NCBI GenBank assembly: GCA_963752285.1
Contig: CAVVXN010000005.1
Location: 1-64,000 of the forward strand
Direction: 5' to 3'
DNA length: 64,000 nt
From: an uncultured Planctomycetota bacterium
Lineage (GTDB): Bacteria > Planctomycetota > PLA2 > JAEUHO01
Shown: positions 37,613 through 58,513 of the stretch, in pieces
How positions within the stretch are numbered: the stretch's first letter is position 1
How the letters are laid out: the number at the start of each line of letters is the position of its first letter
Notes under the pieces: model-generated
Told to the model about the DNA's origin: nothing
The model's database searches: none
What the model saw: only the letters and a program-made list of their open reading frames with translations
Program-made: the position numbers and the translations under genes

Positions 37613-37648
37613 TTGCCCTGCTCCGCCGGCCGGGGTTCACTCGCGATC

Positions 37649-40600
37649 TTGGAAGGGACGCGGGTCGGCCCGTACCGGATTCTCGGCACCCTCGGGGAAG
37701 GGGCGACGGCGACGGTCTGGCTCGCGGAGGCGCTGCGCGCGGTCCACGACCTCCAGCCCGGCGACCAGGTCGCGCTCAAGATCCTCCGGGAGCACCTCGC
37801 GGTCGGCTCGGGCGTGCAGAGCCGGTTCCTCCGCGAGGCGGCGAGCGGGCGTCGCGTGCTCCATCCCAACGTGGTCCGCGTGTTCGACGCGGGCGTGGAC
37901 CGCACGCAGGCGGTGCCCCGCTACTACCTCGCCATGCCGGTGGTCAAGGGACAGACGTTGCGTCGGCTCCTCGACGAGAGCGGCCCGCAGCCGGAGCCCC
38001 TCTGCCGCCACGTCGGTCGCGAGATCGCGCTCGCCCTTGCGGCCGTCCACGCCGCGGGCCTCGTGCACCGGGACGTGAAGCCGGCCAACGTGGCGCTCAC
38101 GCCCGAGGGAAAGATCCGGGTCATGGACCTCGGCGTCGCGAGTCTGCGCGACGGTTCGACACGCATGACGCAGGCCGGCGACTTCCTCGGCTCCGTCCTC
38201 TACGCGGCCCCGGAGCAGTTCGAGGACGGGGGCCAGGAGATCGACGGCCGCGCGGACCTCTACGCCCTGGGGTGGATCCTCTACGAGCTCCTCCTGGGCT
38301 CGCATCCCTTCTCGTCCGCGACGCTCCCGGAGGCGCTCGCCCTGCAGATCCGAACGAGCCCGAAGCGGCTCTCCGAGGTCGTCGATCGCGTCTCGCCGTT
38401 CTACGACGAGCTCGTCGCGACGCTCCTCGCGAAGGACCCCGACACGCGAGTCCCGACCGCCCGCGAGGTGGCGAGCCTGCTGGAGGAAGGGGAGGGCTCC
38501 GCGTGGTGGTCGCGCCTCCGGAGCGACGTCGGAAACCGAGGGCGGCGGCGCGCCGGGACGGGCGGCGGCGCGCGGACGGGGCTCTACGGCCGCGACGACG
38601 CGATGGAGGGTCTGACCCGCGCCTGGGATCGGGCGCGAGATGGCGAGGGAGGCGCCGTCCTCGTCGTGGGGGAGGCGGGGGTGGGGAAGACCCGCCTCGT
38701 CGAGGCGTTCCTCGACGCCGCGGAGCCGAGCGGGCCGGAGGCTCACGTGCTCACCGGCACGTACCTGCCCGGCGGTTCGTTCGACGGCCCCGGAGGCGCG
38801 TCCGGGGCGCTGGCTTCCGCGCTGGGTCCGGGCTCGCTCGAGGAGGCGCTGCGCCGGCACCTGGGGGACGCGCCGGGGCTCGTCCGCGCGTTCGCGGCGC
38901 TGCTTTGCGGCGAGCCCGCACCGGAGGGGATCCCGGCCCTCGACGACGTGTCGATCCGCGTCGCGTACCTCCGGGTCCTCCGGGGCATGTCCAGGGAGCG
39001 TCCGACGGTCCTCGTGCTCGAAGACGTGCACCTCGCGCCGCCCGAGAGCCGGGATCTCCTCGCGTTCCTGGCGGCGCACGCGCGGGGCCTTCCCTTCCTC
39101 CTCGTCGCCACGTGCCGCGACGAGGACGTGGAGGCGTGGGTCTCTACGATCGCGTCGCTCCCGGGCGCAGGGACCCTGAAGCTCGGCCGGTTGGGCGCCC
39201 GCGAGGTCCACGACCTCCTGGTGGAACGGCTGAGGAGCACGCGGACGGCGCGGGCCGTGGGGCCGCGGCTCGCCGAGGTCTCGGACGGGAATCCCTACTT
39301 CCTGCTCGAGCTCGTGCGCGGCCTCGAGAGCGAGGGGTTCCTCCGGCGCGAACCCGACGGCCAGGTCGTGCTCGTCAAGGACCTCGAGGGCATCCGGGTC
39401 CCCGACGCGGTGCGGGCGCAGGTCGAGAACCGCGTCCACGACCTGTCCGAGGACGACCGTGCCCTGCTCGACGCCGCGTCCGTCATGGGCCACGAGTTCC
39501 TGCCGCACGTCGTCGCGGAGATGGTGGACCGGACGCCGCTCGACGTCCTTCGGCGGCTCGCGCGTCTCGAGGACGACGGCTGGGTGCGCGCGTCGGGCGC
39601 GCGCGTGCGATTCGACCACCAGCTCGTGCGCGAGACCCTCTACGACCTGCTGCCCGAGCTCCTGCGCGCGGAGTACCACGCGCTGCTCGGCCGGCGGGCG
39701 CAACGCGAGGCGGGGGCGTCGGTGCAGGAGTCGGACCGGCACCGGTGGGCGGCCGAGGCCTGCCGCCACTTCCTGCGGGGCGGGCGGGGACGCGCGGCCC
39801 TGCGACATCTCGACGCGGCCCTCGCCCACCTGGAGGCCCAGGCGCTGCACGCGGGGACGGCGCACCTGCTCGATCAGGTGCTCACCGTGAAGGACCTCGT
39901 CCAGGGCGAGGACCGCGTGGACCTCCTCCTCCGTCGCGCACGGGTCCTCGACACGCTCGGCCGCGGCGCCGACCGTGCGCGGGACGTAGCCGAGGCGCGG
40001 CGCCTCTCCGAGGAGATCGGAGACCCGCGCCGGAGCGCGCGCGTCGCGCTCGAAGAGGGTCGGGACGTGTTGCAGCGGGGCGAGGCGGACGCGGCGCTCC
40101 CGATCCTCGACCGCGCGCTCGCCTTCGCCAAGACGTCGTTCGCCGCCGACCTCGAAGCCGAGGCTCGGCTCCTCCGCGGCCGGGCGCACGAGATCCGCGG
40201 TCGGCTCGACGCGTGGCGGCTCGAGGCCGAGGCGGCCCTCGCGATCGCGCACGAGCGACAGGACCCGGCCCTCGAGGCGCGGGCCCGCGGCGCGCTCGCC
40301 CAGCAGCTCTGGTTCTCGGGCGACACCGACCGCGCGCTCGCGGAGTTCGAGCAAAGCCTCGAGCTGATGCGGCACCACGGGGGTCCGCTCGAGGAGGCCA
40401 CGGCGCGCGGCAACCTGGCCCTCGCCCTGGAGAGCCTCGGTCGGAACGAGGAGGCCCGCGAACACCTCGTGCGCGTCCTGGCCTCGTGCCGCGAGCTCGG
40501 CTACCGGCGCGGCGAGGCCCACGCGCTCGGAAACCTCGGGATCGTGGAGAGCCAGCTCGGTCACGCGCGCGAGGCCGTGCGTCGTCTCGAGGAGGACCTC

Positions 40601-41281
40601 GAGATCGAGCGGGAGTGCGGCGAAGAGGGCGACCAGGTGATCGCCCTGCTCGGCCTCGGGCGCGAATGGTGTCAGGTCGGCCGTCACGACACCGCGCGCG
40701 TGTACGTTGAGGCGGCGCTCGCCTCGGCCTCGGAGATGGGCTACCGCCTGGGGATGGGGATCGCGCAGTTCCTGCTCGGCGAGATCGCCGGGGAGGAGGG
40801 GCGCCCCGAGGAGAAGCTCCGTCGGCTGGGCGACGCCCGGGAGCACTTCGAAGCGGTCGGGGCGAGACGGTTCGTGGCCTCCGTCCGCCAGGAGCGCGCT
40901 CGATTCTCGGACGACCTGGTGGACCCGGCGGAGAAGATCGAGACGTGGACCGCGCACTGGTCTGCCGACGCCCCGGACACGGACCCGGGGAACCGCGTCG
41001 AGGCGGGTGCCGAGCTCGCCCGGCGGGGCCTGGCCGACGCGACCACGGTGCGCGCGGCGTACCGCGAGGCCGAGGCGCGGCTGAGCGTGGTCGAGCGCAT
41101 CCGGGCTCTCCTGGGCCTCTGGGAGATGGACCGGGACGCCGCCTCCCTCGAGGCGGCCGGCGCGTTGCTCGCCTCGCTCCGCGCCCACGCGCCCCCCGAG
41201 GCGGTCGAGGTCTTCACGACGGGCGTGCGGCTCCATCGCCGCGTGCTCGAGGCCTTGGAGGACCTGGCACGCAGCGCGTGA
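37649..41281 (+). CDS. Ser/Thr protein kinase - AAA ATPase (AAA_16/STAND-like) - TPR protein
   Basis: GEGATATV, VALK, HRDVKPAN, DLG, YAAPEQ; Walker A GEAGVGKT, Walker B VLVLEDVH, DGNPYFLLEL; ALGNLG-type TPRs. Confidence 0.92.
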   Translation: MEGTRVGPYRILGTLGEGATATVWLAEALRAVHDLQPGDQVALKILREHLAVGSGVQSRFLREAASGRRVLHPNVVRVFDAGVDRTQAVPRYYLAMPVVKGQTLRRLLDESGPQPEPLCRHVGREIALALAAVHAAGLVHRDVKPANVALTPEGKIRVMDLGVASLRDGSTRMTQAGDFLGSVLYAAPEQFEDGGQEIDGRADLYALGWILYELLLGSHPFSSATLPEALALQIRTSPKRLSEVVDRVSPFYDELVATLLAKDPDTRVPTAREVASLLEEGEGSAWWSRLRSDVGNRGRRRAGTGGGARTGLYGRDDAMEGLTRAWDRARDGEGGAVLVVGEAGVGKTRLVEAFLDAAEPSGPEAHVLTGTYLPGGSFDGPGGASGALASALGPGSLEEALRRHLGDAPGLVRAFAALLCGEPAPEGIPALDDVSIRVAYLRVLRGMSRERPTVLVLEDVHLAPPESRDLLAFLAAHARGLPFLLVATCRDEDVEAWVSTIASLPGAGTLKLGRLGAREVHDLLVERLRSTRTARAVGPRLAEVSDGNPYFLLELVRGLESEGFLRREPDGQVVLVKDLEGIRVPDAVRAQVENRVHDLSEDDRALLDAASVMGHEFLPHVVAEMVDRTPLDVLRRLARLEDDGWVRASGARVRFDHQLVRETLYDLLPELLRAEYHALLGRRAQREAGASVQESDRHRWAAEACRHFLRGGRGRAALRHLDAALAHLEAQALHAGTAHLLDQVLTVKDLVQGEDRVDLLLRRARVLDTLGRGADRARDVAEARRLSEEIGDPRRSARVALEEGRDVLQRGEADAALPILDRALAFAKTSFAADLEAEARLLRGRAHEIRGRLDAWRLEAEAALAIAHERQDPALEARARGALAQQLWFSGDTDRALAEFEQSLELMRHHGGPLEEATARGNLALALESLGRNEEAREHLVRVLASCRELGYRRGEAHALGNLGIVESQLGHAREAVRRLEEDLEIERECGEEGDQVIALLGLGREWCQVGRHDTARVYVEAALASASEMGYRLGMGIAQFLLGEIAGEEGRPEEKLRRLGDAREHFEAVGARRFVASVRQERARFSDDLVDPAEKIETWTAHWSADAPDTDPGNRVEAGAELARRGLADATTVRAAYREAEARLSVVERIRALLGLWEMDRDAASLEAAGALLASLRAHAPPEAVEVFTTGVRLHRRVLEALEDLARSA

Positions 41282-41348
41282 ACACGACTCGTGGCTCCCC
41301 GGTGCGCGATCCGTTCCGTCCGTTCGGGAGCCTGTGTGGAGGAGTGGG

Positions 41349-41780
41349 ATGACAGCGAAACGAAAGCGAGTCAAGTCGAGAAGGCGCGACGCCTCCGCTC
41401 CCGTGCGGAAGAAGGGGGGAGGGGGTTCGAAGACGTTCACCCTGATCCCGGTCAGCCTCCCCCCCGTCGGGCACTTCGGTCGATTCACGATCATGAACAC
41501 GACCAGCTTCGGCGTCATCTCGGGGGAGGTGAGGGTGAACGCCACCCCGTACCCCGTGAACGGAGTCCCGGCGTTGACCACCGTCCTGGTCCCCCAGGAG
41601 GACGTCCCGGGGACCCCGAACGCGCTGCAGGTCTCGTACACCCTGAACATCCCGGGATTCCCAGCGTTGGCCGACAGCATCGATGCGCCGGATGGAACGC
41701 ACATCGACGAGGTCGAGCTGACGATCGTCATGGACAAGGGAGTCCCCGTGGTGCACAGCCGGCTCGGCTGCCACACGTAG
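41349..41780 (+). CDS. Hypothetical protein (basic N-terminus, beta-rich domain)
   Basis: GGAGGAG RBS; coding-like codon use; 67 bp downstream of the kinase gene. Confidence 0.7.
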   Translation: MTAKRKRVKSRRRDASAPVRKKGGGGSKTFTLIPVSLPPVGHFGRFTIMNTTSFGVISGEVRVNATPYPVNGVPALTTVLVPQEDVPGTPNALQVSYTLNIPGFPALADSIDAPDGTHIDEVELTIVMDKGVPVVHSRLGCHT

Positions 41781-41966: not shown

Positions 41967-43571
41967 TCACCAGCGGGCGGTGAAGACGCGATGGTCGCCC
42001 GTGAAGCGGAAGAGCGGGTTCCCGGTGCGCTCGTAGAAGCGCGCGAGCTCCCGCGATTCCGCCATCGGGGTCACCGTGAGCCCGTTCACGTTCCAGTTGT
42101 CCCCTCCCATACCGCCCCGGAAGGTCGTCGTCAGCATGAGACCGACGATCTCGGAGCGCGGGACCGGGCGCGGGAACCTGAGCTCGACCGTGTGATCCGT
42201 GTTGTCCGCCCATCGCTGACGAGTGTTCACCGCGGGGAAGGTCTGCCGGCTGCCGTCTCGAAACAGCACGGCGACGTCCACGTTGTCGTTGTTCCCGCGG
42301 AGGTCGTCCCCTCCGGTCCGGATCGCGACCTTCAGGTGCGTGGCCAGATCCGCGCCCCCGGGCGCCGGTGTCGGCGACGCCGCCCGCGGCGGGGTCAGCA
42401 CGAGCCGGCGGTGGTCCCCGGTGAACCGGAAGAACGTGCGGTGGTCCACGAGCATGCGACGAACCCCGCCGTCGTAGTAGCTGACGGCGATCCGCTTCGT
42501 GTCCCAGTTGTCTCCCCCGACCCCGCCGCCGAAGGTCGTCTCCAGCGTCAGCGAGGCGATCGTGTCCTTGTGCACCCGGCGAGGGAGGACCACGCGCGCG
42601 AACTCGGTGTAGCCCCCGAGCCAGCGCGCGCCGACGTTGATGTTCGGCAGCGCCATTCGGTTCCCGTCGGTCAGCGTGACCGCGAGACCGACGTTGTCGT
42701 TCCCGCCGCGCAGGTCGTCGTCGCCGGTATCGACCTGCACGACGAGCTCGTCGATCCACCCCCCGCCGAGCGAGGGCAGCGGGCGAATGGTGGGAGGCTC
42801 CGCGGGGACGTACTTGCGGTCCACGAAGTACGTGCGCCACCGCTTCACCCACTGTCCGTCGTGCCGGAGCGCTGGATCCGGGCCGCGGTAGTAGAACGAG
42901 CTCGTCGCCGGATCCGGCACGAGCGTCATCGTGGCGTTCGGCTGGTTCGGGTCGTACACGAAGATCCGCAGGTCCTCCACGTGGGCGCCCAGGTCGCCGC
43001 CATACCGGCCCATGTCGTAGCCGATCGCCAGGACCTGGTGGTTTCCCGGGAGCTTCACGTCGCCGACGCTGCCGCCGAACTCCTGCAGGCCGAGCGGTAC
43101 GGGCCGACCGCTGTCGATCGCGGCCCGGAGCTCCTGCAGGCGGCCGCCGCGCGTGCCCTGAACGCCCCAGCGGAAGAACTCTGCGTTCCGTGCGCCGCCC
43201 GGGTTCAGCCCGACCTCGCCCCACTTGTCGAGGTTCTGCGTGATGGACGTGGCCTGCCGCCGGTAGATGTAACTCTCCAGCACGGTCCCGTTGGCGGGTC
43301 GGTAGTCCTGGCGCGGGATCGGCCGGCCGCGGTTGAAGCAGTCGAGCGCTGCATAGACCATGCCGCCGCAGAGCCCACCGGTGCGGATGTCGAGGTTCGG
43401 CACGAGCTCGTTCTTGAACTCGTTCCGGAACGCGAAGCCGTGCGCCGCGGGGTCGAAACGCGTGCGCACGGGATCGGCGTGCACCTCCGCGACCGTCGGT
43501 CCGAGCAGCAGCCCCGCCAGGAGGCCGAGGCGAAGCGCGCGCGCCCAGGGTGTCCGCCGAATGGTTCTCAC
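41967..43571 (-). CDS. Secreted papain-like cysteine-peptidase-fold protein with two C-terminal 'TGxDDLRG' modules
   Basis: GGAGGAG RBS and signal peptide (..EVHA|D). GLCGGM (Cys ~43369), NHQVLAIGY (His ~43039), VYDPN (Asp ~42952). Two internally repeated ~120-aa modules. Confidence 0.75.
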   Translation of the reverse strand: MRTIRRTPWARALRLGLLAGLLLGPTVAEVHADPVRTRFDPAAHGFAFRNEFKNELVPNLDIRTGGLCGGMVYAALDCFNRGRPIPRQDYRPANGTVLESYIYRRQATSITQNLDKWGEVGLNPGGARNAEFFRWGVQGTRGGRLQELRAAIDSGRPVPLGLQEFGGSVGDVKLPGNHQVLAIGYDMGRYGGDLGAHVEDLRIFVYDPNQPNATMTLVPDPATSSFYYRGPDPALRHDGQWVKRWRTYFVDRKYVPAEPPTIRPLPSLGGGWIDELVVQVDTGDDDLRGGNDNVGLAVTLTDGNRMALPNINVGARWLGGYTEFARVVLPRRVHKDTIASLTLETTFGGGVGGDNWDTKRIAVSYYDGGVRRMLVDHRTFFRFTGDHRRLVLTPPRAASPTPAPGGADLATHLKVAIRTGGDDLRGNNDNVDVAVLFRDGSRQTFPAVNTRQRWADNTDHTVELRFPRPVPRSEIVGLMLTTTFRGGMGGDNWNVNGLTVTPMAESRELARFYERTGNPLFRFTGDHRVFTARW

Positions 43572-43611
43572 GTCGATCTCCTCCGCGCGCGACCCCCGGC
43601 CGCGGCACGGT

Positions 43612-43642
43612 CGATGAACTGCACGCGCGACCGCGGCGCGAC
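43612..43642 (-). promoter_or_regulatory. Putative ECF promoter motif, copy 1
   Basis: GTCGCGCCGCGGTCGCGCGTG-CAGTTCATCG, 40 nt upstream of GTG 43571. Confidence 0.5.
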
Positions 43643-43741
43643 TGGTGCGGACCACGCCGGGGGCGAAGGTCCCGCGTCGCGTCCGCTCCGCCCTCGTCTC
43701 GCCCGCGCGGCCCACGACCCACGGAGGGCCGGGCCCGCGCC

Positions 43742-45064
43742 TCAGGAGCCGGTCTCGAGGCGCAACGGCGACGTGGTCGGCCGCGACCTGGTGAGCCTCT
43801 CGAGCGGGACGCCGGCGCGGTCCATCACCGACACAGCACGTCCTCCGGTGACGGCGTTCACCTGCACGCGCCGGATGTTCCAGTTGTCCGCGTCGATGCC
43901 GGGTCCCTGCACGAGGCTGATCGTGACGTGGCCGAGGCGGCTCATCTCCGCTCCGTGACCCAGCGTCACGATGGCGGTTCGCGTGGAGCCCTCCTTCAGC
44001 TCGGCGCGCTCGTTGAGGGAGACCTGTCCGAGCAGGCTGCCGTCCCGCGCGAACGCGCGGATCACCGCGTCTCCACCGCCGCGCAGGTCGTCCTTGCCGG
44101 TCTCCACGCGTACGACGAGCCGTTCGACGAGCGCCCCGCCGCTCACCGCGACCGTCCGCCTCTCGATTCGACCGGTGAAGCGGTAGGAGGCTCCGTCCCC
44201 GTCTCCGACGATCTCGACGCCCCGGTTCGTGGGCGCCGCCACCAGCGTGCGGAGCGTGACCGGCGGGCGGCCCGGCATCAGGGCCAGCTGCTGGTCCGCC
44301 GGGGTCTCGAGCTCGCCGAGGCCGGCGATCGCGGGGATCACGACCGCCTGCACGCCCACCACCACGTCGGGGTCGAACGTCGAGCCGACGGTGAACCCGA
44401 GGAAGAGGTCCGCCTTCTCGCCGTCGCTGAACAGGTCCTTCGAGAACGCGTTCGTGTCGAAGGCGAACGCCGGGTGGGCGCGCCCCGCCAGGAGCTGGTT
44501 CACGAAGCTGCGCATCACGGCGCCGCTCTCGATCTGGCGGCGCAGCATGGCCGCGAGGCGTCGTGCGACGCGTTCGAGCACGCCGCGCACGACGTGTGGC
44601 GGCGTGTTGCCATTGTCCATCGTGATGAGGATCACGCCCAGCACCTCGGACCGCGCCACGGCCGCCCACGTCCGGTTGTCACGGGGGTCGAGGTGCGGTG
44701 TCGAGACCCCGCTCCAGACGTGGGTGCCCATCCAGGCCGGTAGGGCGCGTGTGTCCCCCGCGTGCAGGTGGCCGTCCCGGGCCCCCTCGGGGTTCCACCG
44801 CGGCTTGTCCACCCAGTCGTGGGGCTCGCGTTCCTGGATCCAGACGCTCGTCGATCCGCGCGTGTTGTGGCGGGAACGAAACATCACGCCCATGACATAC
44901 GGGCGGTCGCCGTCCGCCGCGCGGGTCCGATCGATGCGGATCTGCTCGAGCGTCATCTGGAGGTCGTCCGCCCGGGCCGGCCGGGGGACGGCGAGCAGAG
45001 CGCCGGCGAGGGCGCACGCCAGCGCGACGGCTCGGGACCGAGGGGAGGGCAGGCGATTCGACAT
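43742..45064 (-). CDS. Secreted hypothetical protein with one C-terminal 'TGxDDLRG' module
   Basis: Signal peptide (..PARA|DD); C-terminal RLVVRVETGKDDLRGG..DADNWNIRRVQV. Confidence 0.8.
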   Translation of the reverse strand: MSNRLPSPRSRAVALACALAGALLAVPRPARADDLQMTLEQIRIDRTRAADGDRPYVMGVMFRSRHNTRGSTSVWIQEREPHDWVDKPRWNPEGARDGHLHAGDTRALPAWMGTHVWSGVSTPHLDPRDNRTWAAVARSEVLGVILITMDNGNTPPHVVRGVLERVARRLAAMLRRQIESGAVMRSFVNQLLAGRAHPAFAFDTNAFSKDLFSDGEKADLFLGFTVGSTFDPDVVVGVQAVVIPAIAGLGELETPADQQLALMPGRPPVTLRTLVAAPTNRGVEIVGDGDGASYRFTGRIERRTVAVSGGALVERLVVRVETGKDDLRGGGDAVIRAFARDGSLLGQVSLNERAELKEGSTRTAIVTLGHGAEMSRLGHVTISLVQGPGIDADNWNIRRVQVNAVTGGRAVSVMDRAGVPLERLTRSRPTTSPLRLETGS

Positions 45065-45112
45065 GGATTCACTCCGCGGGGCCGAGGCCGGTGCTCGGCG
45101 CGTTGCCGTGGC

Positions 45113-45143
45113 CGATGAACTGGTGACGGGGCCGCGTCGAGAC
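45113..45143 (-). promoter_or_regulatory. Putative ECF promoter motif, copy 2
   Basis: GTCTCGACGCGGCCCCGTCAC-CAGTTCATCG, 48 nt upstream of ATG 45064; 23/31 identical to copy 1 without gaps. Confidence 0.5.
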
Positions 45144-45261
45144 GTCCGATCCCCGAGACGGCGCGCGCTCGGGGGCGACGGTGGGCTCCGAGGCCGGGGG
45201 CGCCCCGCCGGATGCGAGACCGAGGGGCACCGCGTCACCCGCGATCCGCTATCCTGGCCGG

Positions 45262-45894
45262 ATGACCTCGCCGGCGCCGGACCCCGAGGCTGCTCTCCTC
45301 GCCGCCGCGGAGGATCGCGGCGAGGCCCTCGGACGGCTGCTCGAACGCCACCGCCGCCGGTTGCTCAAGATGATCCACCTGCGGATGGACCCGCGCCTCC
45401 AGGCGCGGGTCGGTGCGTCCGACGTGCTCCAGGACGCCTTCTTCGACGCCGGGCGACGCGTCGGGGCGTACCTCGCGGACCCGCGGATGCCCTTCTTCCT
45501 GTGGCTGCGCTTCCTGACCGCGCAGTCGTTGGCCGCGCGTCATCGCGAGCACCTCGGCGCCCGCAGGCGGGACGTGCGCCGCCAGGTGGACGGGGGACGC
45601 CCCGACGCCTCCGGCCCGGCCGTCGTGGACCTCCTGGTCGCGAACGGCACGACACCGACGGAGGGCGTGGCGCGAGAGGAGACCCGGGTTCGGGTGCTCG
45701 CGGCCCTGGAGCGACTCGGCGAGACGGACCGGGAGATCCTCGTGCTCCGCCACTTCGAGGAGCTCGGGAACGAGGAGGCCGCCTTCGAGCTGGGCATCGA
45801 GCCGCCCGCGGCGAGCAAACGCTACGTCCGCGCGTTGCGTCGCCTGAGGGAGGCCCTGTGCGCCGAGGGCCTGGGCGAGGCCGGACTCGCATGA
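45262..45894 (+). CDS. Planctomycete-type ECF sigma-70 factor (kinase-associated)
   Basis: HLRMDPRLQARVGASDVLQDAF, FFLWLRFL, DREILVLRHFEELGNEEAAFELGI..AASKRYVRALRRL. Confidence 0.92.
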   Translation: MTSPAPDPEAALLAAAEDRGEALGRLLERHRRRLLKMIHLRMDPRLQARVGASDVLQDAFFDAGRRVGAYLADPRMPFFLWLRFLTAQSLAARHREHLGARRRDVRRQVDGGRPDASGPAVVDLLVANGTTPTEGVAREETRVRVLAALERLGETDREILVLRHFEELGNEEAAFELGIEPPAASKRYVRALRRLREALCAEGLGEAGLA

Positions 45895-48800
45895 ACGCCG
45901 ACGCCTCCGAGGAGCTCGACCGCCTCGCACAGGAGTTCGTCGCGCGACACCGCGAGGGCGACCGACCCTCGGTCTTTGATTTCGCGGCGCGTCACCCCGA
46001 GCGCGCCGCGGACATCCGCGAGCTCTTCCCCGTGCTTCTCCGGATGGAGACGCTCCGGAGCGACGTGGTCGGCCAGCCGTCCGGGACGCGCCTCGGCGAC
46101 TACGTTCTCCTTCGCGAGATCGGCCGAGGTGGGATGGGCGTCGTCTACGAGGCGGTGCAGACCACCCTCCACCGGCGCGTGGCGCTCAAGGTGTTGCCGC
46201 ACGGCGCCACGTTCGACCCGCGCACCTCGGAGCGATTCCGCGCCGAGGCGCGTGCCGCGGGCAGGCTGCACCACGCCAACGTCGTGCCGGTCATCGAGTA
46301 CGGCGAGGAGGACGGCGTCCACTACTACGCGATGCAGTACGTCGAGGGCCGTGGGCTCGATGCCGTGCTCGCGAGCCTGCGGCGGCGCCTTGCGTGCGAG
46401 GGCGACGCGGGGGGCGGCGACCCCCTCGCCGACGCGCTCGCCGATCGTCTGCTCCAGGGGGCCTGCGCGGGGGGCGGCGCCGCGGCAGGGCGGTCTCGGT
46501 CGTCGGGCGCGGGTCGCGGGGTCCGCCCGCGCCGGCCCGGGCGGCGCTACCACGACGCCGTCGTGCGCCTGCTTCTCCAGGCCACGGAAGGGGTCGCGGC
46601 CGCGCACGCGCAAGGCGTGCTGCACCGGGACATCAAGCCGTCGAACCTGATCCTCGATGCGGACGGGAAGCTCTGGGTCGCCGACTTCGGGCTCTGCAAG
46701 GAAGCCGACGGGCGAGAGGACACGCTGCCCGGCGCCGTCGCGGGAACCCTGCGCTACCTCCCCCCGGAGCGTCTGCGTGGTGCGTCGGACGTTCGGGGCG
46801 ACCTCTACGGTCTCGGGATCACGCTCTACGAGATGCTGACACTCGCTCCCGCGTACGCCTCGGAGGATCGCGTGGCGCTCCTGGCCGACATCGCCAGGGC
46901 GCCGCCACGCCGTCCCCGCGCGCTCGATCCGAGAATCCCCGTGGACCTCGAGGCCGTCGTGCGGAAGGCCACGGCGCACGACCCGGGACAGAGGTACGTG
47001 ACGGTCGAGGGCCTCGCGGCGGACCTCGGCGCGTACCTGGAGGGGCGGGCGATCACCGCGCGCGCACCGAGGGCCACGTACCTGCTTCGCGCCTGGGTTC
47101 GACGGCACCGGGCCCTCACGGCGACCGTGCTGCTGGCCGTGGCGGCGCTGGGCACGGGCGCGGCCTTCTACGTGAGGAACCTCGCGCAGGAGCAGGTGGA
47201 GGCGAGGTTCCAGCAGTACGTGGCGAGCATCGCGGCGGCGGAGGGAGCGCTGCGGCTCCAGGACCCCGATACCGCGCGACGCCTCCTCGACGACGCGCCG
47301 CCGGAGCTTCGCAACTGGGAGTGGCAACACCTCGAGAGCCGGCTCGACCGGAGCCTTTGGACGATCGACCTCGGCGGCGCAGAACCCCACGGCGTGGCGT
47401 ACGACCCCGACGGTTCCAAGTTCGCAATCGGCGCCGACGACTGGACCTCCGTGTGCGACGACACGTCCGGCCGGGAGGTCGCGCGGCTCGACCACGAGGG
47501 GAGCGTCACGGGCGTCGCGTGGAGTCCGCGGGGCGACCGCATCGCCGTGGGCACCTGGGAAGGACTGGAGATCTGGAGCTGGCCCGATCCGCACCGGCTC
47601 CACCGCCTGGCCGGAGCGGGTCAGGTGGCGGACCTGTCCTTCAGCCTCGACGGTCGGCGCGTGGCGACGGGTGGCGACGAGGGGCGGTTGCGGGTGTGGG
47701 ACGTGGAGAGCGGCCGCCTCGAGGCGGACCTCGGCGTGCACGCGTGGATCCACGCGCTCGACTTCCGATCCGGGGACGACCGCGTCGCCGTGGGAGGCGG
47801 TGACGGCATCGCCTCCGTCTGGGACGTGGCGACCGGCGCGTGCCTCTGGTCCCGGCGGGCGAGCGACGTCGGGCTCCACGGGATCACGTTCGTCGGTCGG
47901 GATCGCGTGGCCACGCCCTCCGAGGCGCACCACGTGTGCCTGTGGTCCGCGGCCTCGGGCGATCTGCTTCGGATCGTGACGCGGCTGCGCCAGGTGGGGG
48001 CCGCCCAGGTGCGCGCCACGACGGACGGGACGCTGCTCGCGGTCGGCTCCGGGCAGGGACTGGAGATCTGGGACGCGCGCGACTGGACCTGCCGTGCCAC
48101 CTGGCCGGGCCGGTACGCGGTGCTCGACGTCGCGTTCCATCCCTCGCACACGTGCGTCGTGACCGCCTCCATGGGCGCGGTCAAGGCGTGGGCGGCCGAG
48201 CGCGACCCCGACGTGCTGCGGGGCCACATGGACGACGTGACCAGCGTCGCCTACGCGCCGGACGGCGCCTGGTTCGTCTCCGCCGGCGTCGGCGGGGTCG
48301 TCCGGAGGTGGGACGCGAACACCGGCGAGCAGGCCCGTGCGTGGATCGGGCACCGCTGGTCCGTGACCGCGCTCGCCGTCTCGCCCGACGCCCGCCTCGT
48401 CGCCGCCGGCGACGCGACGGGAGAGGTGCTGCTCTGGGACGTGGAGCGCGACGAGGTCGCGTTGCGGATCGACGCGCACGAAGGCGCCCCCGTGCACGAC
48501 CTCGCATTCCGCCACGACGGCACCCGACTCGCCACGGCCGGCGCGGACGGCCGGCTCGCCGTGTGGGACGTCGCGACCGGCAAGCCGCTCGCGACCGTTC
48601 GGGCGACCGACGGGAGCCTGGGCTGCGTCGAGGTGACGCCCGACGACCGGTACGTCCTGACCGGCGACGCGTCCGGCGCGGTCCGGGTGTGGGACGCCGC
48701 GACCTTGGCGCCGGTCCGGGACCTCTCGCCCCACGGCGACCTCGTGACCGGTATCGACTGTTGCGCGACCCGGGGTCTCGTCGCGACCGTGTCGCAGGAC

Positions 48801-49736
48801 GACACGCTCCGACTCTGGAACCTCGACGACGGGAGCCTTCGGCGCGTCACGCCGCTGCCGTCACCCCTCGACGTCGCCTTCAGCCCCGACGGGAGCCGCC
48901 TGGCCGCGGGCTGCATGGACGGGACCGTCCGCCTCTTCGACACGGCGAGCGGCCGGCTGGTCGCGACCCTCCAGCACGTGGACTGGGTCTACGCCGTAGC
49001 GTGGAGCCCGGACGGCGAACGGCTGCTGTCGGCGAGCAGCGCCGCCGAGGTCCGCGTCTGGGGCACGCGACCGCTCGGTGTGCGCCGTCCCCGCGAGGCC
49101 GACCCTTCGCGCCGACGCCGCGCCGTGGCCCTCGTCGCCGCGCTGGCGGAGGCGGACCCCGATCCCGACGTCCTCGTGCGTCGGGTTCGCACCCGGACGG
49201 ACCTCGGTCCGGACCTTCGCGAAGCCGCGCTGCGCGAGGCGTATCGTCTTCTCGGGAGCGAGGAGGGGCTGATCGCGCGGCTCTGGCGGGCTGCGACGTC
49301 GCGCGACGCGGACCCGCTCCGGCTTCGCATCGCACGGGGGCTGGCGGCGGACATGACCCGCGCGGCGGGCCACCGGAACCGGCCCGACACGCGCCGGAAC
49401 ACCCTCTGGGCGGCGCTGACCTTCCGTAGCGGCGACTACGACCTCGCGCTCGAGCGCCTCCGGACCTCGATGATGCTGAACGAGGACCGGTTCCCCGAGC
49501 TCTTCGCCGTGGACCTCGCGCTCCTCGCGCTGAGCCACGCGGCGCTGGGCCACGACCGCGACGGGAAGGAGGCGCTCGCACGTCTCGAGGCGCACCTGGA
49601 CGACCATCCGAAGGCACGGACCCCGCGGGTCGAGGCGTTCCTCGCCGAGGCGCGGGAGGCCGTGAGGAAGGCCACGACCTCCCCGGCGGGGGCGTCCGGC
49701 CGCGAGACGGCGGGCGCCGCGACCGGAGGCGGCTGA
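45891..49736 (+). CDS. Ser/Thr protein kinase with TM, WD40 beta-propellers and C-terminal helical/TPR-like region
   Basis: ATGA overlap with the ECF gene; GRGGMGVVY, VALK, HRDIKPSN, DFG, GTLRYLPPE; many WD repeats (e.g. LRGHMDDVTSVAYAPDG..VRRWD). Confidence 0.93.
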   Translation: MNADASEELDRLAQEFVARHREGDRPSVFDFAARHPERAADIRELFPVLLRMETLRSDVVGQPSGTRLGDYVLLREIGRGGMGVVYEAVQTTLHRRVALKVLPHGATFDPRTSERFRAEARAAGRLHHANVVPVIEYGEEDGVHYYAMQYVEGRGLDAVLASLRRRLACEGDAGGGDPLADALADRLLQGACAGGGAAAGRSRSSGAGRGVRPRRPGRRYHDAVVRLLLQATEGVAAAHAQGVLHRDIKPSNLILDADGKLWVADFGLCKEADGREDTLPGAVAGTLRYLPPERLRGASDVRGDLYGLGITLYEMLTLAPAYASEDRVALLADIARAPPRRPRALDPRIPVDLEAVVRKATAHDPGQRYVTVEGLAADLGAYLEGRAITARAPRATYLLRAWVRRHRALTATVLLAVAALGTGAAFYVRNLAQEQVEARFQQYVASIAAAEGALRLQDPDTARRLLDDAPPELRNWEWQHLESRLDRSLWTIDLGGAEPHGVAYDPDGSKFAIGADDWTSVCDDTSGREVARLDHEGSVTGVAWSPRGDRIAVGTWEGLEIWSWPDPHRLHRLAGAGQVADLSFSLDGRRVATGGDEGRLRVWDVESGRLEADLGVHAWIHALDFRSGDDRVAVGGGDGIASVWDVATGACLWSRRASDVGLHGITFVGRDRVATPSEAHHVCLWSAASGDLLRIVTRLRQVGAAQVRATTDGTLLAVGSGQGLEIWDARDWTCRATWPGRYAVLDVAFHPSHTCVVTASMGAVKAWAAERDPDVLRGHMDDVTSVAYAPDGAWFVSAGVGGVVRRWDANTGEQARAWIGHRWSVTALAVSPDARLVAAGDATGEVLLWDVERDEVALRIDAHEGAPVHDLAFRHDGTRLATAGADGRLAVWDVATGKPLATVRATDGSLGCVEVTPDDRYVLTGDASGAVRVWDAATLAPVRDLSPHGDLVTGIDCCATRGLVATVSQDDTLRLWNLDDGSLRRVTPLPSPLDVAFSPDGSRLAAGCMDGTVRLFDTASGRLVATLQHVDWVYAVAWSPDGERLLSASSAAEVRVWGTRPLGVRRPREADPSRRRRAVALVAALAEADPDPDVLVRRVRTRTDLGPDLREAALREAYRLLGSEEGLIARLWRAATSRDADPLRLRIARGLAADMTRAAGHRNRPDTRRNTLWAALTFRSGDYDLALERLRTSMMLNEDRFPELFAVDLALLALSHAALGHDRDGKEALARLEAHLDDHPKARTPRVEAFLAEAREAVRKATTSPAGASGRETAGAATGGG

Positions 49737-51284: not shown

Positions 51285-54200
51285 TCACTTCGACGGCGAG
51301 ACGGGCTCCACGACGAGGGTGCCGAGCGACCAGGCGCCGAGCGTCGTTCGGACCGTGTGTCCCTCGGGCGCCTGCTCCTCGGCGAGGTCCTCCATCAGGT
51401 TGGTTCGCCACGCGCGCGCGACCGGGAAGGGGAAGGTGACCGTCACCTCGGCCGCGCGGCCCTCCTTCTCGACGAGGCGCACCACGAACCGCGGCGGGTC
51501 CGAGGGGAGGCGGGTCCGCTTCATCGCCGCGATCTCGACGTGATCGCAGTCGCTCGTGACGAGGGCCCGCCCGGCCGGGAGCGTTCCCCGCTCCGAGGCC
51601 GACGTGAGGATCGCCCGGAGCGGGAGGTTCAGCTCCGCGCCCCTCCGGTAGCTCTTGGCCTCCTGCCATCCCGCCACGTGGGGGTAGAGCGCATAGGTGA
51701 ACCGCGCCTCGCCCATGTCGGCCCCGGGATCGGGGTACTTGGGCGCGCGGAGGAGGGACAGGGCCAGCCGGTGGTCGAGGACGTCGTAGCCGTACTTCGC
51801 GTCGTCGAGGAGCGAGAGGCCGAAGGCGCCCGAGCGGTCCGTCTCGTCGGCCCACCGCTGCCCCCAGACCTCCCACTTCGCCTTCTCCGCGGCGGTCTTC
51901 GGATGCGTCGTCCGGTCGATCGTCCCGTAGGGGATCTCGAACGTCGCGGCGTCGGCGTCCGCGGCGACGTCGAACACGGCCTTGAGCATCTCGTGGGACG
52001 CGTGCCAGTCGGCCTTCGTGCGGATCTCGAGCCAGGGGACGCCCCGCGTCACGACGATCTCCTGCTCGAAGCTCGAGTCGCCGTGCGGGACGTGGACGTG
52101 GACGGAGGCCGAGAGGGGCGGGGTCGCGGACGCGGTGACCGAGTCGGCCACGAGCTCCGTCCGGGCGCCGTCCCGCCCGATGTTCCACGCGTCCCACTGG
52201 CTCGGCAGGTCCTGCCGGATCTCGAGGACGTTCCCGCCCCCGGGACCCAGCACCTCGCGCCGCTCGGGCAGGAGCACCAGCGAGACGACGCGGCCGGTCT
52301 TCTTGTCGATGCGGGCCTCGAGCGAGGCGTTCGCGAGGACGAACGCGTCCGGCGCCTCGCGCACGGTAGGACCCTCCTCGGCGGGGTCCGCCGGAGGGGT
52401 CCCGCCGCCCCCCGGGACCGGCGAGGTCCAGTACGTCCGGTACCCGACGCCCGGCACGTCTTCGGCGAGGAACCGAAGACGGCCGTCTTCCCAGCGGGAC
52501 GGCACGGGGAGACCGTGCTCGTCCACCGCGCCGAGCGCGATCTTCGAGGTCGTGTGCACCTCGACGACGCCGGTCACCGGCCAGGAGTGCGCGTTCCAGA
52601 CGATCACGGGGTGGCCCGCGTGACCCGTCGTGTCGACGTGGCGCGCCAGCGCGCGGGCCGCCTCCTTGACGACGCCCCCCGCGAGCTGGGCCGCCTCGTC
52701 GTAGTCCTGGTGCGCGTCCTCGTAGATCTCGTGGATCCCCGAGCCCGGCAGGAGGTCGTGGAACTGGTTGAAGAGCGTCCGCTTCCAGGCGCCGTCGAGC
52801 GCGTCGATCGGGGTACGCGTAGCCCGCGTCGAGGGCCGCCGCGATCGACGCCAGCTTCTCGGCGAGCTCGAGCGAGGCCTCCATGCGGCGGTTTCGCATC
52901 TTCATGTCGCCGTGCGTCGTGTACGTGCCGCGGTGGTACTCGAGGTAGAGCTCGGTGTCCCACACGGGCACGTCGGGGTACTTCGCGCGGACGCGGTCGA
53001 GGAACGCCTCCGGGCTCGCGTGCTCGACGGTCGGGAACACGCGCATCTTCGACATCTCGACCGTCCGCTCGATCATCTCGCGCGTGGGGCCGCCGCCGTG
53101 GTCGCCCACGCCGTAGAGGTCGAGCAGGTCCACCAGGCCGGGCTGCTGCTCGAGCTGCGTCCGCATGTGGGTCGCGAGGACCTCGGGCCGCGCGTCGTCC
53201 ACGTAGTCGAACGGGAAGTACGTCAGGACCTCCGAGCCGTCCGGGGACCTCCACCGGAAGAGCCGGTGCGGGAACTTCGTCGTGTCGTTCCAGCCGATCT
53301 TCTGCGTGATGAAGGCGTCGATGCCGGCGCCCCGGAAGATCATGGGCAGCGTCCAGGCGTAGCCGAAGGAGTCGGGGTTCCAGCCCACGTGGACGTCCAC
53401 GCCGAAGTGGTCGCGCGCGTAGCCCTTGCCGTAGAGGAGCTGGCGTACGAACGACTCGCCCGACGGCAGGTCGCAGTCGGGCTCGACCCACATGCCCCCG
53501 ACGACGTCCCACCGGCCGTCCTTCACCGCGGCCGCGAGGTCCCGGCTCATCTCCGGGAACAGCTCGTCCACCCACGCGTTCGTCTGCATCGAGCTCTGGG
53601 CGAAGCGGAAGAAGGGGAACTCGTGCGTGAAGAGGAGCGCCTGGCGGTAGGTCAGGTCTACGACGTGCTGGGTCTCCTTCCGCTGCCACATCCAGGCCAT
53701 GTCGATGTGACTGTTGCCGATGAACGTGATCCGCTGCCGCTTGACCTCCTTCGCGCCGGCTTCGACCGCCGCGTCGATCGCGCGCCACGCCGCGTCGAAG
53801 GCCGCGCCGTCGCCCGCGGCGTAGGCCGTGAGAAGTCCGGCGAAGCGGGCCTCGCCGTCCCCGAACAGGTCGGGACGAAAGCGCGCGCCCCAGGTCCAGT
53901 CGTTCGAGAGCGAGGCGAAGTCGTAGCGGGGCGCCGCGAGGTCCGCGCGGAGGGGCGGGTCGCCCATCACGATCGAGAGGAGCGCCTGCGGGTCGAGCGG
54001 AAGGGGCTCCGGGGGGCCCGCGTCGCCGGGTCGGCCCGTCCAGGCGAGGGCGGCTGCGGGCCGGACGCCGGCGGCGACCTTCTCGATCGCCGCGCGCGCG
54101 TCGAGGAGCAGCCGGACGGGGACGAGCGCGCCGGCACCCGCCTCGAACGGCTTCGTGACGCCGAGCGCGGCGACCTCGAGGCGCGCGTCCCGCGCCGGCT

Positions 54201-54894
54201 CCGTCCCGAGATTCCGGACGCGGACGTCGAGGGCGATCTCGCCCGGCGGCGCGAGTGTCGGCTCCGCGCGGATCCCCGCGACGACGAGGAACGGCCGGGT
54301 CGAGGCCGGCGCGTAGTCGGCGGGGCGCTGCGCAACGGCCTCGAGACCCTCGACCCCGACGAGGCGTGCCGACCCCCCGAAGCCGCCCTCGTTGTTCGCG
54401 ACCTGGAGGAGGAGCCGGTTCCACCCCTCCCCGAGCCGGACGGGCACGCGGTCCTGGTCGGGGCCCCAGCTCCGGAGCGCCCAGTGACGCAGGACCTCGG
54501 CGCCGTTCAGGTACGCGCGGATGCCGTCGTCGCTGCCGACGGAGAGGACGGCCGTCGTCTCGGCGGGCGCGTGGACGTACGCGAGGAGGTACGCGCTCAC
54601 CACGTCGGTCTTCGAGAAGCCCGCGCCGAGGAGGTTGGCCTGGCCCTCCGCGTCGGCGGCGAGGGGCACCCACGTCCGCTCGGCCGTCGCATCGCCGCGC
54701 TGCGGCGCGAGGTCCACGACGCCCGCGGGCGGCGGCGTGTCGAAGGGGTTCTGTCCCGCGGCGAAGGGGAACGGGCCGAGCACGAGCCACCTCGTCACGG
54801 GGAGCGAGGGGACGGTCGCGTCGTCGTCGGCGTGGACCGCGCGCGCGGCGAACGCCGTCGCCACGAGGAGCCCGGTGATCAGGAGAGTCCGCAT
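51285..54894 (-). CDS. Secreted GH38 alpha-mannosidase with N-terminal PA14/galactose-binding-like domain; apparent +1 frameshift at 52810-52813
   Basis: SHIDMAWMW, GGMWVEPD, WNPDSFGY, YGVGDHGGGP, ELYLEYHRGTYTT. After removing one base: WKRTLFNQFHDLLPGSGI..LDDAKYGY..LSLLRAP. Confidence 0.9.
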
Positions 54895-55853
54895 CACTTG
54901 CCCTTCCGGTCGAGCGCGACCGCCGCGAGGATCACGGCGCCCTTTACGACCTTCTGCCAGTAGGTGGAGACGTCGAGCAGGACGAGGCCGTTGTCGAGCA
55001 CGCCGATCACCAAGGCGCCGAGGACCGTGCCCCACAGGGTGCCCCGTCCGCCCATGAGGCTGCATCCGCCGACGACGACCGCCGCGATCGCGTTCAGCTC
55101 GAAGAGGTCGCCGGCCTTCGGGTCGCCCGTGCCGAGGCGAGCGGCGAGGACCAGACCGCCGAGCGCCGCGAGGAACCCCATGCCCCCGTAGACGAGGAGC
55201 TTCACGCGGCCGACGCGTACGCCGCTCAGGCGTGCCGCCTCCTCGTTCCCGCCGACGGCGTACACGTGGCGGCCGAACGTGGTGCGCGCGAGGAGGAACG
55301 CGGTGGCGAGCACGACCAGCGCCGTCAGGAGGACCGGCAAGGGAACCGGCCCCACGCGCGCCGTGCCCCAGAACGTGAAGGAGTCCGAGAGGCCGCCCAC
55401 GCTCTGCCCGCCGGTGTAGAGGAAGGCGAGGCCGCGGATCGCGGTCATCGAGGCGAGCGTCGCGATGAAGGGGGCCACGCGGAGGAACACGACCGCCGCG
55501 CCGTTCGCGAGGCCGACGAGGGCGCCGGCGCCGAGCGCCACCGCCGCGGCGACCGGGACGGGTGTGCCGCGCGCCGCGAGATCGGCGCCCACGACGCCGC
55601 CGAACGCGACCACCGACCCGACCGAGAGGTCGATGCCGGCCGTCAGGATCACGAGGGTCATCCCCGTCGCGAGGACGGTGTTCACCGAGATCTGGAGAAG
55701 GACGTTCAGGAGGTTCTGGCCCGTGAGGAACGCGTGGTTCGGAGTCGCGACGGCGAGGAACGCGCAGAAGAGCACGAACGCGCCGGCGAGGCCGACGCCT
55801 CGGACCCGCGCGGCGAGCCCGGGACGCGTCGCCGGCGGGGGCGCGGACGTCAT
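54894..55853 (-). CDS. Monosaccharide ABC transporter permease (RbsC-like)
   Basis: GIDLSVGS, PFIATL, FGRHVYAVGGNEEAARLSGV, ELNAIAAVVVGG. Confidence 0.95.
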   Translation of the reverse strand: MTSAPPPATRPGLAARVRGVGLAGAFVLFCAFLAVATPNHAFLTGQNLLNVLLQISVNTVLATGMTLVILTAGIDLSVGSVVAFGGVVGADLAARGTPVPVAAAVALGAGALVGLANGAAVVFLRVAPFIATLASMTAIRGLAFLYTGGQSVGGLSDSFTFWGTARVGPVPLPVLLTALVVLATAFLLARTTFGRHVYAVGGNEEAARLSGVRVGRVKLLVYGGMGFLAALGGLVLAARLGTGDPKAGDLFELNAIAAVVVGGCSLMGGRGTLWGTVLGALVIGVLDNGLVLLDVSTYWQKVVKGAVILAAVALDRKGK

Positions 55854-57349: not shown

Positions 57350-58281
57350 CAGTGCGCGCCGGAGGCCGCGTCTTCCTTCTCGAGGCTCTCGCGCGTGAGG
57401 AGGCTCACGTCCACCGGCTCCACCGAGGGGACCTTCTCGCCCTTCAGCCAGGCGGCGACGGCCTCGACGACCTGGCGTCCGATCTCGCGCGGATGCTGCA
57501 CCACGTCCGCCTGCAGCGCGCCGCCCTTGCGGATCGCGTCGCGCGCCTCGGGTGTCGCGTCGTAGCCCACGACGACCACGTCCTCCTTCCCGAGCCCGTC
57601 GAGCGCGCGCAGCACGCCCATCGCGGTCTCGTCGTTGATCGCGAAGATGCCCTTGATCTGGGGATGCGCCTGGAGGGTGTTCGTCGCCACGTCCAACGCC
57701 ATCTCTCGCTTGCCCTCCGCGGACGGACGCGCCACGATCTCGATGCCCGGGTGCTTCGCGATCTCCTCCGTGAAGCCGCGCACGCGATCTTGAACGCTCG
57801 CGACCTGCGGGTGGTCCACGATGGCGACGGCCCCGGCGTCGGCGAGCTGCTTCGCGAGGAACGCGCCGGCGAGCCGACCGCCCTGCACGTTGTCCGACGC
57901 GACGTGGCAGGTCACGTCCAGGCCCTCCGCGGCGATGTCCGCCGTGAAGACGCCGACGCCCGCGTCCTGTGCGCGCCGGAGCGCCTGCGCGATCCCCCGA
58001 CTGTCTACGGGGCAGGCGATGATCGCCTTCGCGCCACGCACGACGAAGTTCTCGACCTGGGCGGTCTGCTGGGCCAGGTCCTTCTCGGCCGACTGGACGA
58101 GGAGATGGAGATGCGCCTTCGCGGCCGCGTCGCGCATGCCCGCTTCGAGCTCGCGGTAGAAGAAGTCCTGCTGGTCGAGGAGCGTGACGCCGACGACGGG
58201 CTCCCCGGAGTCCTTCGTGCCGCAGGCGGGCACGAGGAGGGCGAGCGACGCGAGGAGGAAGGGGCGGAAGAGCGGGTGCAT
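57349..58281 (-). CDS. Monosaccharide ABC transporter substrate-binding lipoprotein (RbsB-like)
   Basis: VPA-C lipobox; VASDNVQGG, RVRGF, IFAINDETAMG, VVGYDA. Confidence 0.93.
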   Translation of the reverse strand: MHPLFRPFLLASLALLVPACGTKDSGEPVVGVTLLDQQDFFYRELEAGMRDAAAKAHLHLLVQSAEKDLAQQTAQVENFVVRGAKAIIACPVDSRGIAQALRRAQDAGVGVFTADIAAEGLDVTCHVASDNVQGGRLAGAFLAKQLADAGAVAIVDHPQVASVQDRVRGFTEEIAKHPGIEIVARPSAEGKREMALDVATNTLQAHPQIKGIFAINDETAMGVLRALDGLGKEDVVVVGYDATPEARDAIRKGGALQADVVQHPREIGRQVVEAVAAWLKGEKVPSVEPVDVSLLTRESLEKEDAASGAH

Positions 58282-58513
58282 GGGGGGCTCCGGGCCGGCC
58301 GGCGCTCTCGCCTCCGGCCGCGCCGAAGGCGCGAACCTAGCCCCCGGGTCCCCGGGCGACAAGCGCGGGTCGGTCGCATCCGGCGGGAGGACGGGGCGCG
58401 CGAGCGGGCGCCGCCGGGCCTCGAGTCGGTGCGGGCGCGCCGGACGGGAGAAAAGCGGCGGAAAGCGCCCCGCCTCCGTGCCGCGCGCGCACCGTGCGAC
58501 GTTCTCAATCCGT

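Follow-up and report, generated by a model that had tools for sequence, protein, structure and literature searches.

The locus described here lies in a window of 64,000 nucleotides from an uncultured Planctomycetota bacterium (assembly GCA_963752285.1, contig CAVVXN010000005.1, positions 1 to 64,000). It comprises a gene pair encoding an extracytoplasmic function (ECF) sigma factor and a Hanks-type Ser/Thr kinase, and two divergently oriented genes, designated A and B, for predicted secreted proteins. We consider it reasonably probable that the locus is an ECF62-like local switch, likely activated by phosphorylation, with swappable, membrane-targeted secreted cargo. A cue would be sensed by the predicted outward-facing WD40 region of the kinase, and the kinase would likely phosphorylate the sigma factor at Ser53, which stands in place of an acidic residue needed for core binding, as the examples of EcfP/PknT and EcfK/PknS suggest. 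The sigma factor would then likely transcribe A and B from the bipartite motif (T)GTCnCG-N15/16-CAGTTCA that precedes each of them, and comparative sequence analysis points to a regulon of just these two genes in this genome. Judged from the predicted folds, A would be a cysteine hydrolase located at a membrane surface, where it would cut peptide or amide bonds, and B a lipid-surface protein, non-enzymatic or with another activity, whose C2-like core would present an amphipathic helical insert. The two would not form a fixed complex; one type of promoter would drive both as exchangeable cargo.

All four gene calls were confirmed, each with a GC content at third codon positions of 0.91–0.92 in frame. 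Gene A (41967..43571, minus strand, 534 residues) starts with GTG after GGAGGAG and encodes a predicted signal peptide (residues 1–32), a papain-fold domain and two PLAT domains, while gene B (43742..45064, minus strand, 440 residues) encodes a predicted signal peptide (residues 1–32), a C2-like domain with a helical insert and one PLAT domain. The genes for the ECF62-like sigma factor (45262..45894, plus strand, 210 residues) and the kinase (45891..49736, plus strand, 1281 residues) lie on the other strand; the kinase is composed of a kinase domain, a predicted transmembrane helix, WD40 propellers and a helical tail. The signal peptides of A and B and the transmembrane helix of the kinase were called from hydropathy and sequence only. 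The first-pass annotation had described a translationally coupled pair of an ECF and a membrane kinase with WD40 repeats, 197 bp from two divergent genes for secreted proteins. This description holds: the ECF stop codon and the kinase start codon overlap as ATGA, and the intergenic distance between B and the ECF gene is exactly 197 bp. A scan of the locus for the sigma70 consensus gave no promoter. No terminator was found between B and A, and transcription starting at B may therefore read through into A.

The sigma factor contains regions sigma2 and sigma4 only, matches PF08281 and passes TIGR02937 (56.9 bits, cut-off 42.9). It falls below the cut-off of TIGR02984 (Sig-70_plancto1; 167.3 versus 183.75 bits), yet this family is its best match by far. 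The planctomycete group ECF62 is defined in the supplement of Casas-Pastor et al. 2021 (PMC7826278) by a kinase with one transmembrane helix and WD40 repeats encoded at position +1. The same arrangement is present here, the +1 gene encoding a kinase with one predicted transmembrane helix and a WD40 fusion as in subgroups s1 and s2, and it has the appearance of a planctomycete ECF without an anti-sigma factor and linked to a kinase, in support of the earlier view. The catalytic motifs of the kinase are intact (residues 78, 97, 245, 265 and 285), and the protein matches the Pkinase and WD40 families. Its single hydrophobic helix is predicted at residues 408–426 (47112–47168, plus strand; mean hydropathy 1.9) and is followed by nine WD40 stretches, the propellers being placed by the family scan at about 47360–49085 on the plus strand. 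Periplasmic WD40 arrays have been predicted for Planctomycetota kinases of such build (PMC11032199). ECF62 kinases of subgroups s1–s3 are described with an N-terminal zinc finger, which for s1 can be recognised in the alignment only (PMC7826278); the first 160 residues of the present kinase contain no Cys, and a zinc finger is not evident by eye. The genome has 41 ECF and 41 kinase matches, among them eight adjacent pairs, which together with the TIGR02984 match points to a planctomycete as the probable host. In one related locus (L090:11695–14776, genome G013) the kinase gene is broken over three frames, by assembly errors or decay.

The predicted phosphoacceptor, Ser53 (45418–45420, plus strand), lies within the acidic motif of region sigma2.2. 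It aligns with the acidic position of SigW and CnrH, and a Ser is found there in 40 of the 44 ECF relatives. EcfP and EcfK have a Thr where the sigma2.2 motif otherwise has an acidic residue, and this Thr is the phosphorylation site of the kinase encoded next to them (PMC8999054, PMC13147305, PMC8103513). Two relatives, L168 and L170, carry Asp or Glu at the position of Ser53, a natural phosphomimic; a kinase is encoded upstream at L168, and none within 16 kb at L170. A housekeeping-type -10-like box, TATCCT (45250..45255, plus strand), lies 6 nt 5' of the ECF start codon, and a TAnnnT element 5–7 nt before the in-frame start occurs in 17 of 29 ECF relatives, compared with 1 of 29 out of frame. 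The proximity of this box to the start codon suggests that the ECF gene is likely transcribed as a leaderless mRNA by the housekeeping sigma factor, in which case control would be post-translational.

Among 7,996 scored candidates, 837 homologues of A were identified. The residues C68 (43368–43370), H178 (43038–43040) and D207 (42951–42953, all on the minus strand) are invariant in 103/103 aligned homologues, in support of the Cys-His-Asp arrangement that had been noticed in A. The papain-fold domain occupies 42786..43469 (minus strand, about residues 35–262). In the model, which has a predicted local distance difference test (pLDDT) score of 92, residues 32–258 match papain-fold enzymes, with Z 8.7 to interpain A and 7.5–8.2 to other clan CA folds. 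The order of the triad together with the predicted fold agrees with clan CA, and the Atlas neighbours of A are labelled 'putative peptidase C39-like' (0.96–0.97). Neither A nor B gave any Pfam or NCBIfam match above cut-off. Peptidase C39-like (PF13529, gathering score 24) did not match A, and reached 20.5 and 20.8 bits in two of four pre-flagged homologues; Foldseek listed no match for the catalytic domain of A and gave no clear match for the N-terminal domain of B, neither domain having been folded alone. We infer that A is a papain-fold cysteine hydrolase. Its papain-fold matches are tied at Z 6–8.7 with 5–19% identity, so that no substrate follows from them. The clan CA hydrolases considered (interpain/streptopain C10, staphopain C47, IdeS C66, C39-like enzymes and PeiR) share the Cys-His-Asp order and the predicted fold with A, but A differs in its low structural identity to them, the absence of a passing Pfam family and of a propeptide, and its tandem PLAT tails.

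A and B were searched for in 401 genomes of the phylum, and 80 other A loci were inspected, 18 of them with less than 5 kb upstream. The A family spans many phyla but occurs in only 3/401 of the phylum genomes. The A protein of genome G026 groups with Myxococcota sequences, apart from A of the window (FastTree only), which suggests separate acquisitions, both under the same upstream motif. In Paraliomyxa, the A homologue is followed by another, distantly A-like peptidase gene (L001:10178–11710). A lipoprotein of genome G011 (L156:4494–5732), whose Cys and His motifs recall a papain-type site and which has no Pfam match, is encoded after the kinase gene under the same motif; it was considered as a relative of A and rejected, since no relationship was detectable.

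The C-terminal module had been regarded as novel and as shared by the two secreted proteins. It is indeed common to both, with two copies in A and one in B (29–42% identity, E 1e-11 to 1e-26), but it is not novel, being PLAT/LH2 by fold and profile. The first copy in A (42387..42758, minus strand, about residues 272–395) is supported by structure and profile, the second (41970..42347, minus strand, about residues 409–534) matches the PLAT domain of 5-lipoxygenase with Z 11.6, and the copy in B (43754..44134, minus strand, about residues 311–437) aligns with 1olp over 115 residues (Z 12.9, root-mean-square deviation 2.3). The closest agreement was obtained for A PLAT with the C-terminal domain of clostridial alpha-toxin (Z 14.2, deviation 2.1, 120 residues aligned), while lipoxygenases gave Z 10–12; the profile of the shared module matched PLAT at E 8e-5. 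Acidic residues of the PLAT region of A are conserved as well (D285 in 103/103 homologues, D286 and D354 in 101 each). Compared with known PLAT/LH2 domains (PF01477; clostridial alpha-toxin, lipoxygenases, lipases), the module shows the same fold (Z 9–14) and a conserved acidic loop, but represents a divergent bacterial branch with the signature TGxDDLR...DNW, which is mostly missed by Pfam and is carried by many secreted hydrolases and lectins. PF01477 matched neither A nor B, and its gathering score was passed by 4 of the 66 module carriers scanned, which were picked from 150 listed in the search with the B profile. With this profile, 1,238 clusters were obtained (50% identity), and of the 150 listed the majority matched via the PLAT module. 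Unlike clostridial alpha-toxin, A and B have no phospholipase domain.

Membrane binding, in many cases calcium-assisted, is known for PLAT domains (PMC7436259), and the structural models suggest that the tails of A and B likely dock on lipid surfaces. An alternative, which we regard as unlikely though worth keeping in view, is that the ligand of these PLAT-like tails is not lipid but a polymer or a glycan of the cell surface, and that the system scavenges particulate food. The company in which the module travels is in line with such a role, as its carriers include M19-like proteins (13/66), trypsin, C1 peptidase and glyoxal-oxidase-like proteins, and lectin domains (ricin B, DM9, tectonin). 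Fold comparison also gave a match to a calcium-dependent carbohydrate-binding module, but at Z 6.3 it stands far below the PLAT matches, which in addition have the support of sequence. Large secreted proteins combining an M19-like amidohydrolase domain with three to four PLAT domains recur (P0143, P0145, P0164, P0165, P0167, P0169, P0170, P0183 and L093:1174–4554), and one of them is encoded divergently from a B homologue.

The N-terminal domain of B (44150..44968, minus strand, residues 33–305) is predicted to be a C2-like beta-sandwich (model pLDDT 90). Over about 110–135 residues it can be superposed on many C2 domains (cPLA2, Munc13, synaptotagmin-like) with Z 5.5–7, a middling match, and the assignment of a C2-like fold is of the same middling strength. 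It has no support from sequence: the N-terminal domain gave no match to PDB sequences, and none of 40 members matched a Pfam C2 family. The comparison of folds, which the first-pass annotation had proposed, has given a papain fold for A, PLAT tails for both proteins and, for the N-terminal domain of B, this intermediate result. Three aspartates of the B family are invariant (D53 in 38/38, D150 and D233 in 40/40 members), and we presume them to be calcium ligands, in analogy to the architecture of C2 domains. D150 and D233 flank the insert (residues 156–227, 44384–44599, minus strand), which is made up of four helices, amphipathic by hydrophobic moments, variable in sequence and of a mean hydrophobicity of -0.06 to 0.32. 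In contrast to known C2 domains, B is bacterial and predicted to be secreted, carries this helical insert of about 70 residues and reaches Z 7 at most. The family is rare (59 clusters by the profile of the N-terminal domain, 3/401 phylum genomes), and its named members come from Bacteroidota, Hyphomonadaceae and a cyanobacterium. In P0156, P0161 and P0175, a B-type domain is fused C-terminally to proteins of 778–1424 residues without Pfam matches.

These properties bear on the possibility that A and B are an antagonistic weapon directed at the membranes of a competitor, prey or predator, with B inserting a helical hairpin. The amphipathic insert, the resemblance of the PLAT tails to the domains by which lipoxygenases, lipases and clostridial phospholipase C are targeted to membranes, the presence of a domain of a type VI secretion system (T6SS) effector (9jdd) among the tied papain-fold matches of A, and the control of anti-predator secretion by EcfK/PknS (PMC13147305, PMC8999054) all point in this direction. 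On the other hand, the insert is not strongly hydrophobic and its sequence varies, no conserved small immunity-like neighbour was found in the 80 A loci, and the same promoters elsewhere drive ordinary lipoproteins and alpha/beta hydrolases, so that we find this explanation rather improbable. A bolder form of it would make B the founder of a secreted bacterial C2-fold family, whose calcium loops and PLAT tail dock on foreign membranes into which the amphipathic hairpin inserts, and which the kinase-sigma switch releases along with a protease targeted to membranes, the two making up an inducible kit for membrane attack; we would call this a long shot. The C2 fold has been called eukaryote-only in one review (PMC7436259).

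The assignment of A and B to the adjacent sigma factor is based on promoter motifs. The word CAGTTCATCG is shared at 43612 and 45113. An exact shared 10-mer is weak evidence by itself, as it arises in 30% of shuffles at 73% GC, while one with at least five A/T was found in 0.02% of 5,000 shuffles, by a criterion set post hoc. The motif reported earlier is present before both genes but was only half of the element, as the conserved -35-like half had been missed. The complete candidate promoters are GTCGCG-N15-CAGTTCA for A (43612..43643, minus strand, 43 nt before the start codon) and GTCTCG-N15-CAGTTCA for B (45113..45144, minus strand, 51 nt before the start codon). A matrix was built from five sites (upstream of A, B, the B gene of G001, the A gene of G026 and the ECF gene of G028) and applied to the promoter-proximal windows of 44 ECF loci. 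Eight scored at least 16, three of which are training loci; the remaining 5 of 41 held-out loci compare with 0.87% of 1,720 random window sets (binomial 3e-5). The motif occurs in 4/4 members of the supported clade (98/90) that includes the present ECF, and two genomes, G028 and G004, have it directly before the gene for the ECF. Four motif sites end 6–8 nt before a start codon, which corresponds to the geometry of a -10 box.

The motif was observed before signal-peptide genes in 7 of the 10 loci grouped as clade 1 and in none of seven loci of a sister clade (clade 2, support 100/99). Conversely, a second motif, TGTCnAC-N15-GGnnCC, precedes signal-peptide genes in three of the seven clade-2 loci and in none of the ten clade-1 loci; both patterns were recognised post hoc. 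Among 29 loci of other ECF clades, five match the clade-1 motif and one matches motif 2. The B homologue of G013 adjoins a clade-2 ECF and carries motif 2. The sites of motif 2 are L090:11170 (minus), L142:6222 (minus), 6899 (plus) and 11383 (plus), and L161:3679 (minus) and 3680 (plus); in L090 and L161 two copies stand back to back as an inverted repeat. The two clades differ at five aligned ECF positions, including sigma2 residue 84 (F versus R); in RpoE-type sigma factors this position corresponds to the Arg of the WLYRIA segment. The genes downstream of the motif at ECF loci encode varied lipoproteins, alpha/beta hydrolases and the Cys-His lipoprotein mentioned above.

Several observations weigh against this assignment. 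Three of the five held-out sites were first noticed by eye, which leaves a blind result of 2/38 (p about 0.04) among kin that are not independent, and 36/44 ECF relatives score below 16. The clade-1 group is partly circular, as it includes three G026 contigs chosen for motif or kinase. No genome-wide excess of the motif was detected (17 found, 11 expected). The strict pattern, which has the leading T, gave 11 matches in 40 genomes against one for the reversed control, but 6 of the 7 new matches lie in coding sequence, and none is in this genome, because both window sites lack the leading T. A looser clade-2 pattern matched often both in the test and in the control. In G026, the motif stands before three genes for secreted proteins although the assembly contains no clade-1 ECF; a contig there ends within a kinase gene whose product has a 60% identical tail. 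A search for a genome-wide regulon brought no credible further site, as the hits that scored lower in the matrix than the two training sites did not, by eye, lie convincingly upstream of genes.

An alternative view takes the motif as genuine but assigns it to a different regulator, such as a transcription factor or the ECF paralogue on contig C1 of this genome, with the adjacent pair controlling something else. The paralogue, which could read the same motif, is 55% identical and has the same WLRF segment, and the G026 sites and the motif-like sites of the other ECF clades fit this view as well. Nevertheless, the locus of the paralogue itself scores only 5.6, the motif precedes the ECF gene in two genomes, for B it changes with the ECF clade, and it is clustered on the ECF tree, none of 500 label shuffles being as clustered (a result that near-copies favour too). 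Control by another regulator seems quite unlikely to us, and A and B are probably local targets of the adjacent ECF. The expectation that ECF targets are neighbours gains probability from a motif that tracks the ECF clade and switches with it. ECFs that govern small regulons close to their own gene form a recognised class (PMC7776599).

The block as a whole is not conserved. A and B each occur in 3/401 phylum genomes and together only in this one, on which ground we reject a conserved four-gene system and find no support for the earlier notion of a new system of this kind. The presumed association of a protease with a binding protein is not maintained either: G001 has B and the ECF/kinase genes in the same layout without A, G013 has the ECF upstream of B and the kinase divergent, again without A, and A and B co-occur in only 1/80 other A loci (L059). 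Association with ECF/kinase genes does recur. B adjoins them in all three phylum genomes in which it is found, and A lies directly behind a coupled but unrelated ECF/kinase pair in 2/80 loci (L017, with a TIGR02999 ECF and a TPR kinase, and L063, with another ECF and a WD40 kinase), so the refuting case named in the first-pass annotation, that homologues never co-occur with such pairs, does not hold. In L001 an ECF/kinase pair lies 3 kb from A, while B has no adjoining ECF/kinase in L059 and in 4/4 metagenome loci. That A and B are a dedicated pair travelling as a unit, with B as the substrate, activator, adaptor or inhibitor of A, would agree with their common orientation, promoter motif and tail and with the recurrence of the B-then-A order, one gene between, in Bacteroidota L059, whose A is not close, but is very doubtful given B without A in G001, G013 and the four metagenome loci, A without B in 79/80 loci, no A-B fusion among 294 proteins, and the appearance of L059 and L093 as loose secreted-protein clusters.

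Histidine-kinase gene clusters occur within 3.5 kb of A in 24/36 Bacteroidota loci, though such kinases are common there and the kin are not independent; the one member scanned is a TPR histidine kinase. A genes with an adjacent TPR-type histidine kinase, in some cases accompanied by a response regulator, were seen in L022, L028, L032, L037, L049, L051, L055, L056, L062, L073 and Flavobacteriaceae, a neighbourhood that parallels the ECF/kinase arrangement. In the window, two genes converge on A: one for a further Ser/Thr kinase, which has AAA and TPR domains (37613–41281), and a 148-residue gene without Pfam matches (41334–41780). On the other side lies what we take, from its appearance, to be an alpha-mannosidase-like gene (51285–54963 and 54894–58716), apparently in two frames near 52600–52900, adjoined by a presumed sugar ABC transporter. 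The genes flanking the block showed no synteny in G001 or G013.

The regulatory scheme proposed for this locus is itself already known. Kinase-linked ECFs are abundant in planctomycetes, and the ECF62 group entry comes without promoter or targets. Here, specificity and activation become open to direct experiment through the different motifs of the two sister clades, the sigma residue that co-varies with them and the predicted phosphoserine. In addition, a large branch of bacterial PLAT domains, mostly missed by Pfam, is brought to light. Potentially the larger finding of the locus is B, a small unmodelled family with a predicted C2-like fold. Literature searches on ECF62 promoters, planctomycete ECF regulons and bacterial PLAT peptidases brought up no work dealing with these families, although Jogler 2012 and Wiegand 2020 may contain motifs, and the supplements of Todor 2020 show no ECF62 or planctomycete names, though numeric ids may be used there.

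Among known systems, ECF62 is one of the closest to the locus, with which it shares the +1 kinase with one transmembrane helix and WD40 repeats and the lack of an anti-sigma factor. The supplementary entry for this group describes its predicted promoters as not conserved and names no targets (PMC7826278), whereas a clade-specific promoter and targets are proposed here; a counterpart to the zinc finger of some ECF62 kinases could not be made out by eye at the N-terminus of the present kinase. Like EcfP/PknT of Vibrio parahaemolyticus and EcfK/PknS of Xanthomonas citri (ECF43), the locus combines an anti-sigma-free ECF with an adjacent membrane Hanks kinase, and like EcfP and EcfK its sigma factor has a Ser/Thr at the acidic position of sigma2.2 and an output that would act outside the cytoplasm. 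Unlike in EcfP and EcfK, this residue is Ser instead of Thr and the following Asp is kept, and the kinase has a predicted WD40 ectodomain. The predicted output differs as well, as it consists of two Sec-type secreted proteins in place of the T6SS or polymyxin regulon governed by EcfP/PknT and EcfK/PknS.

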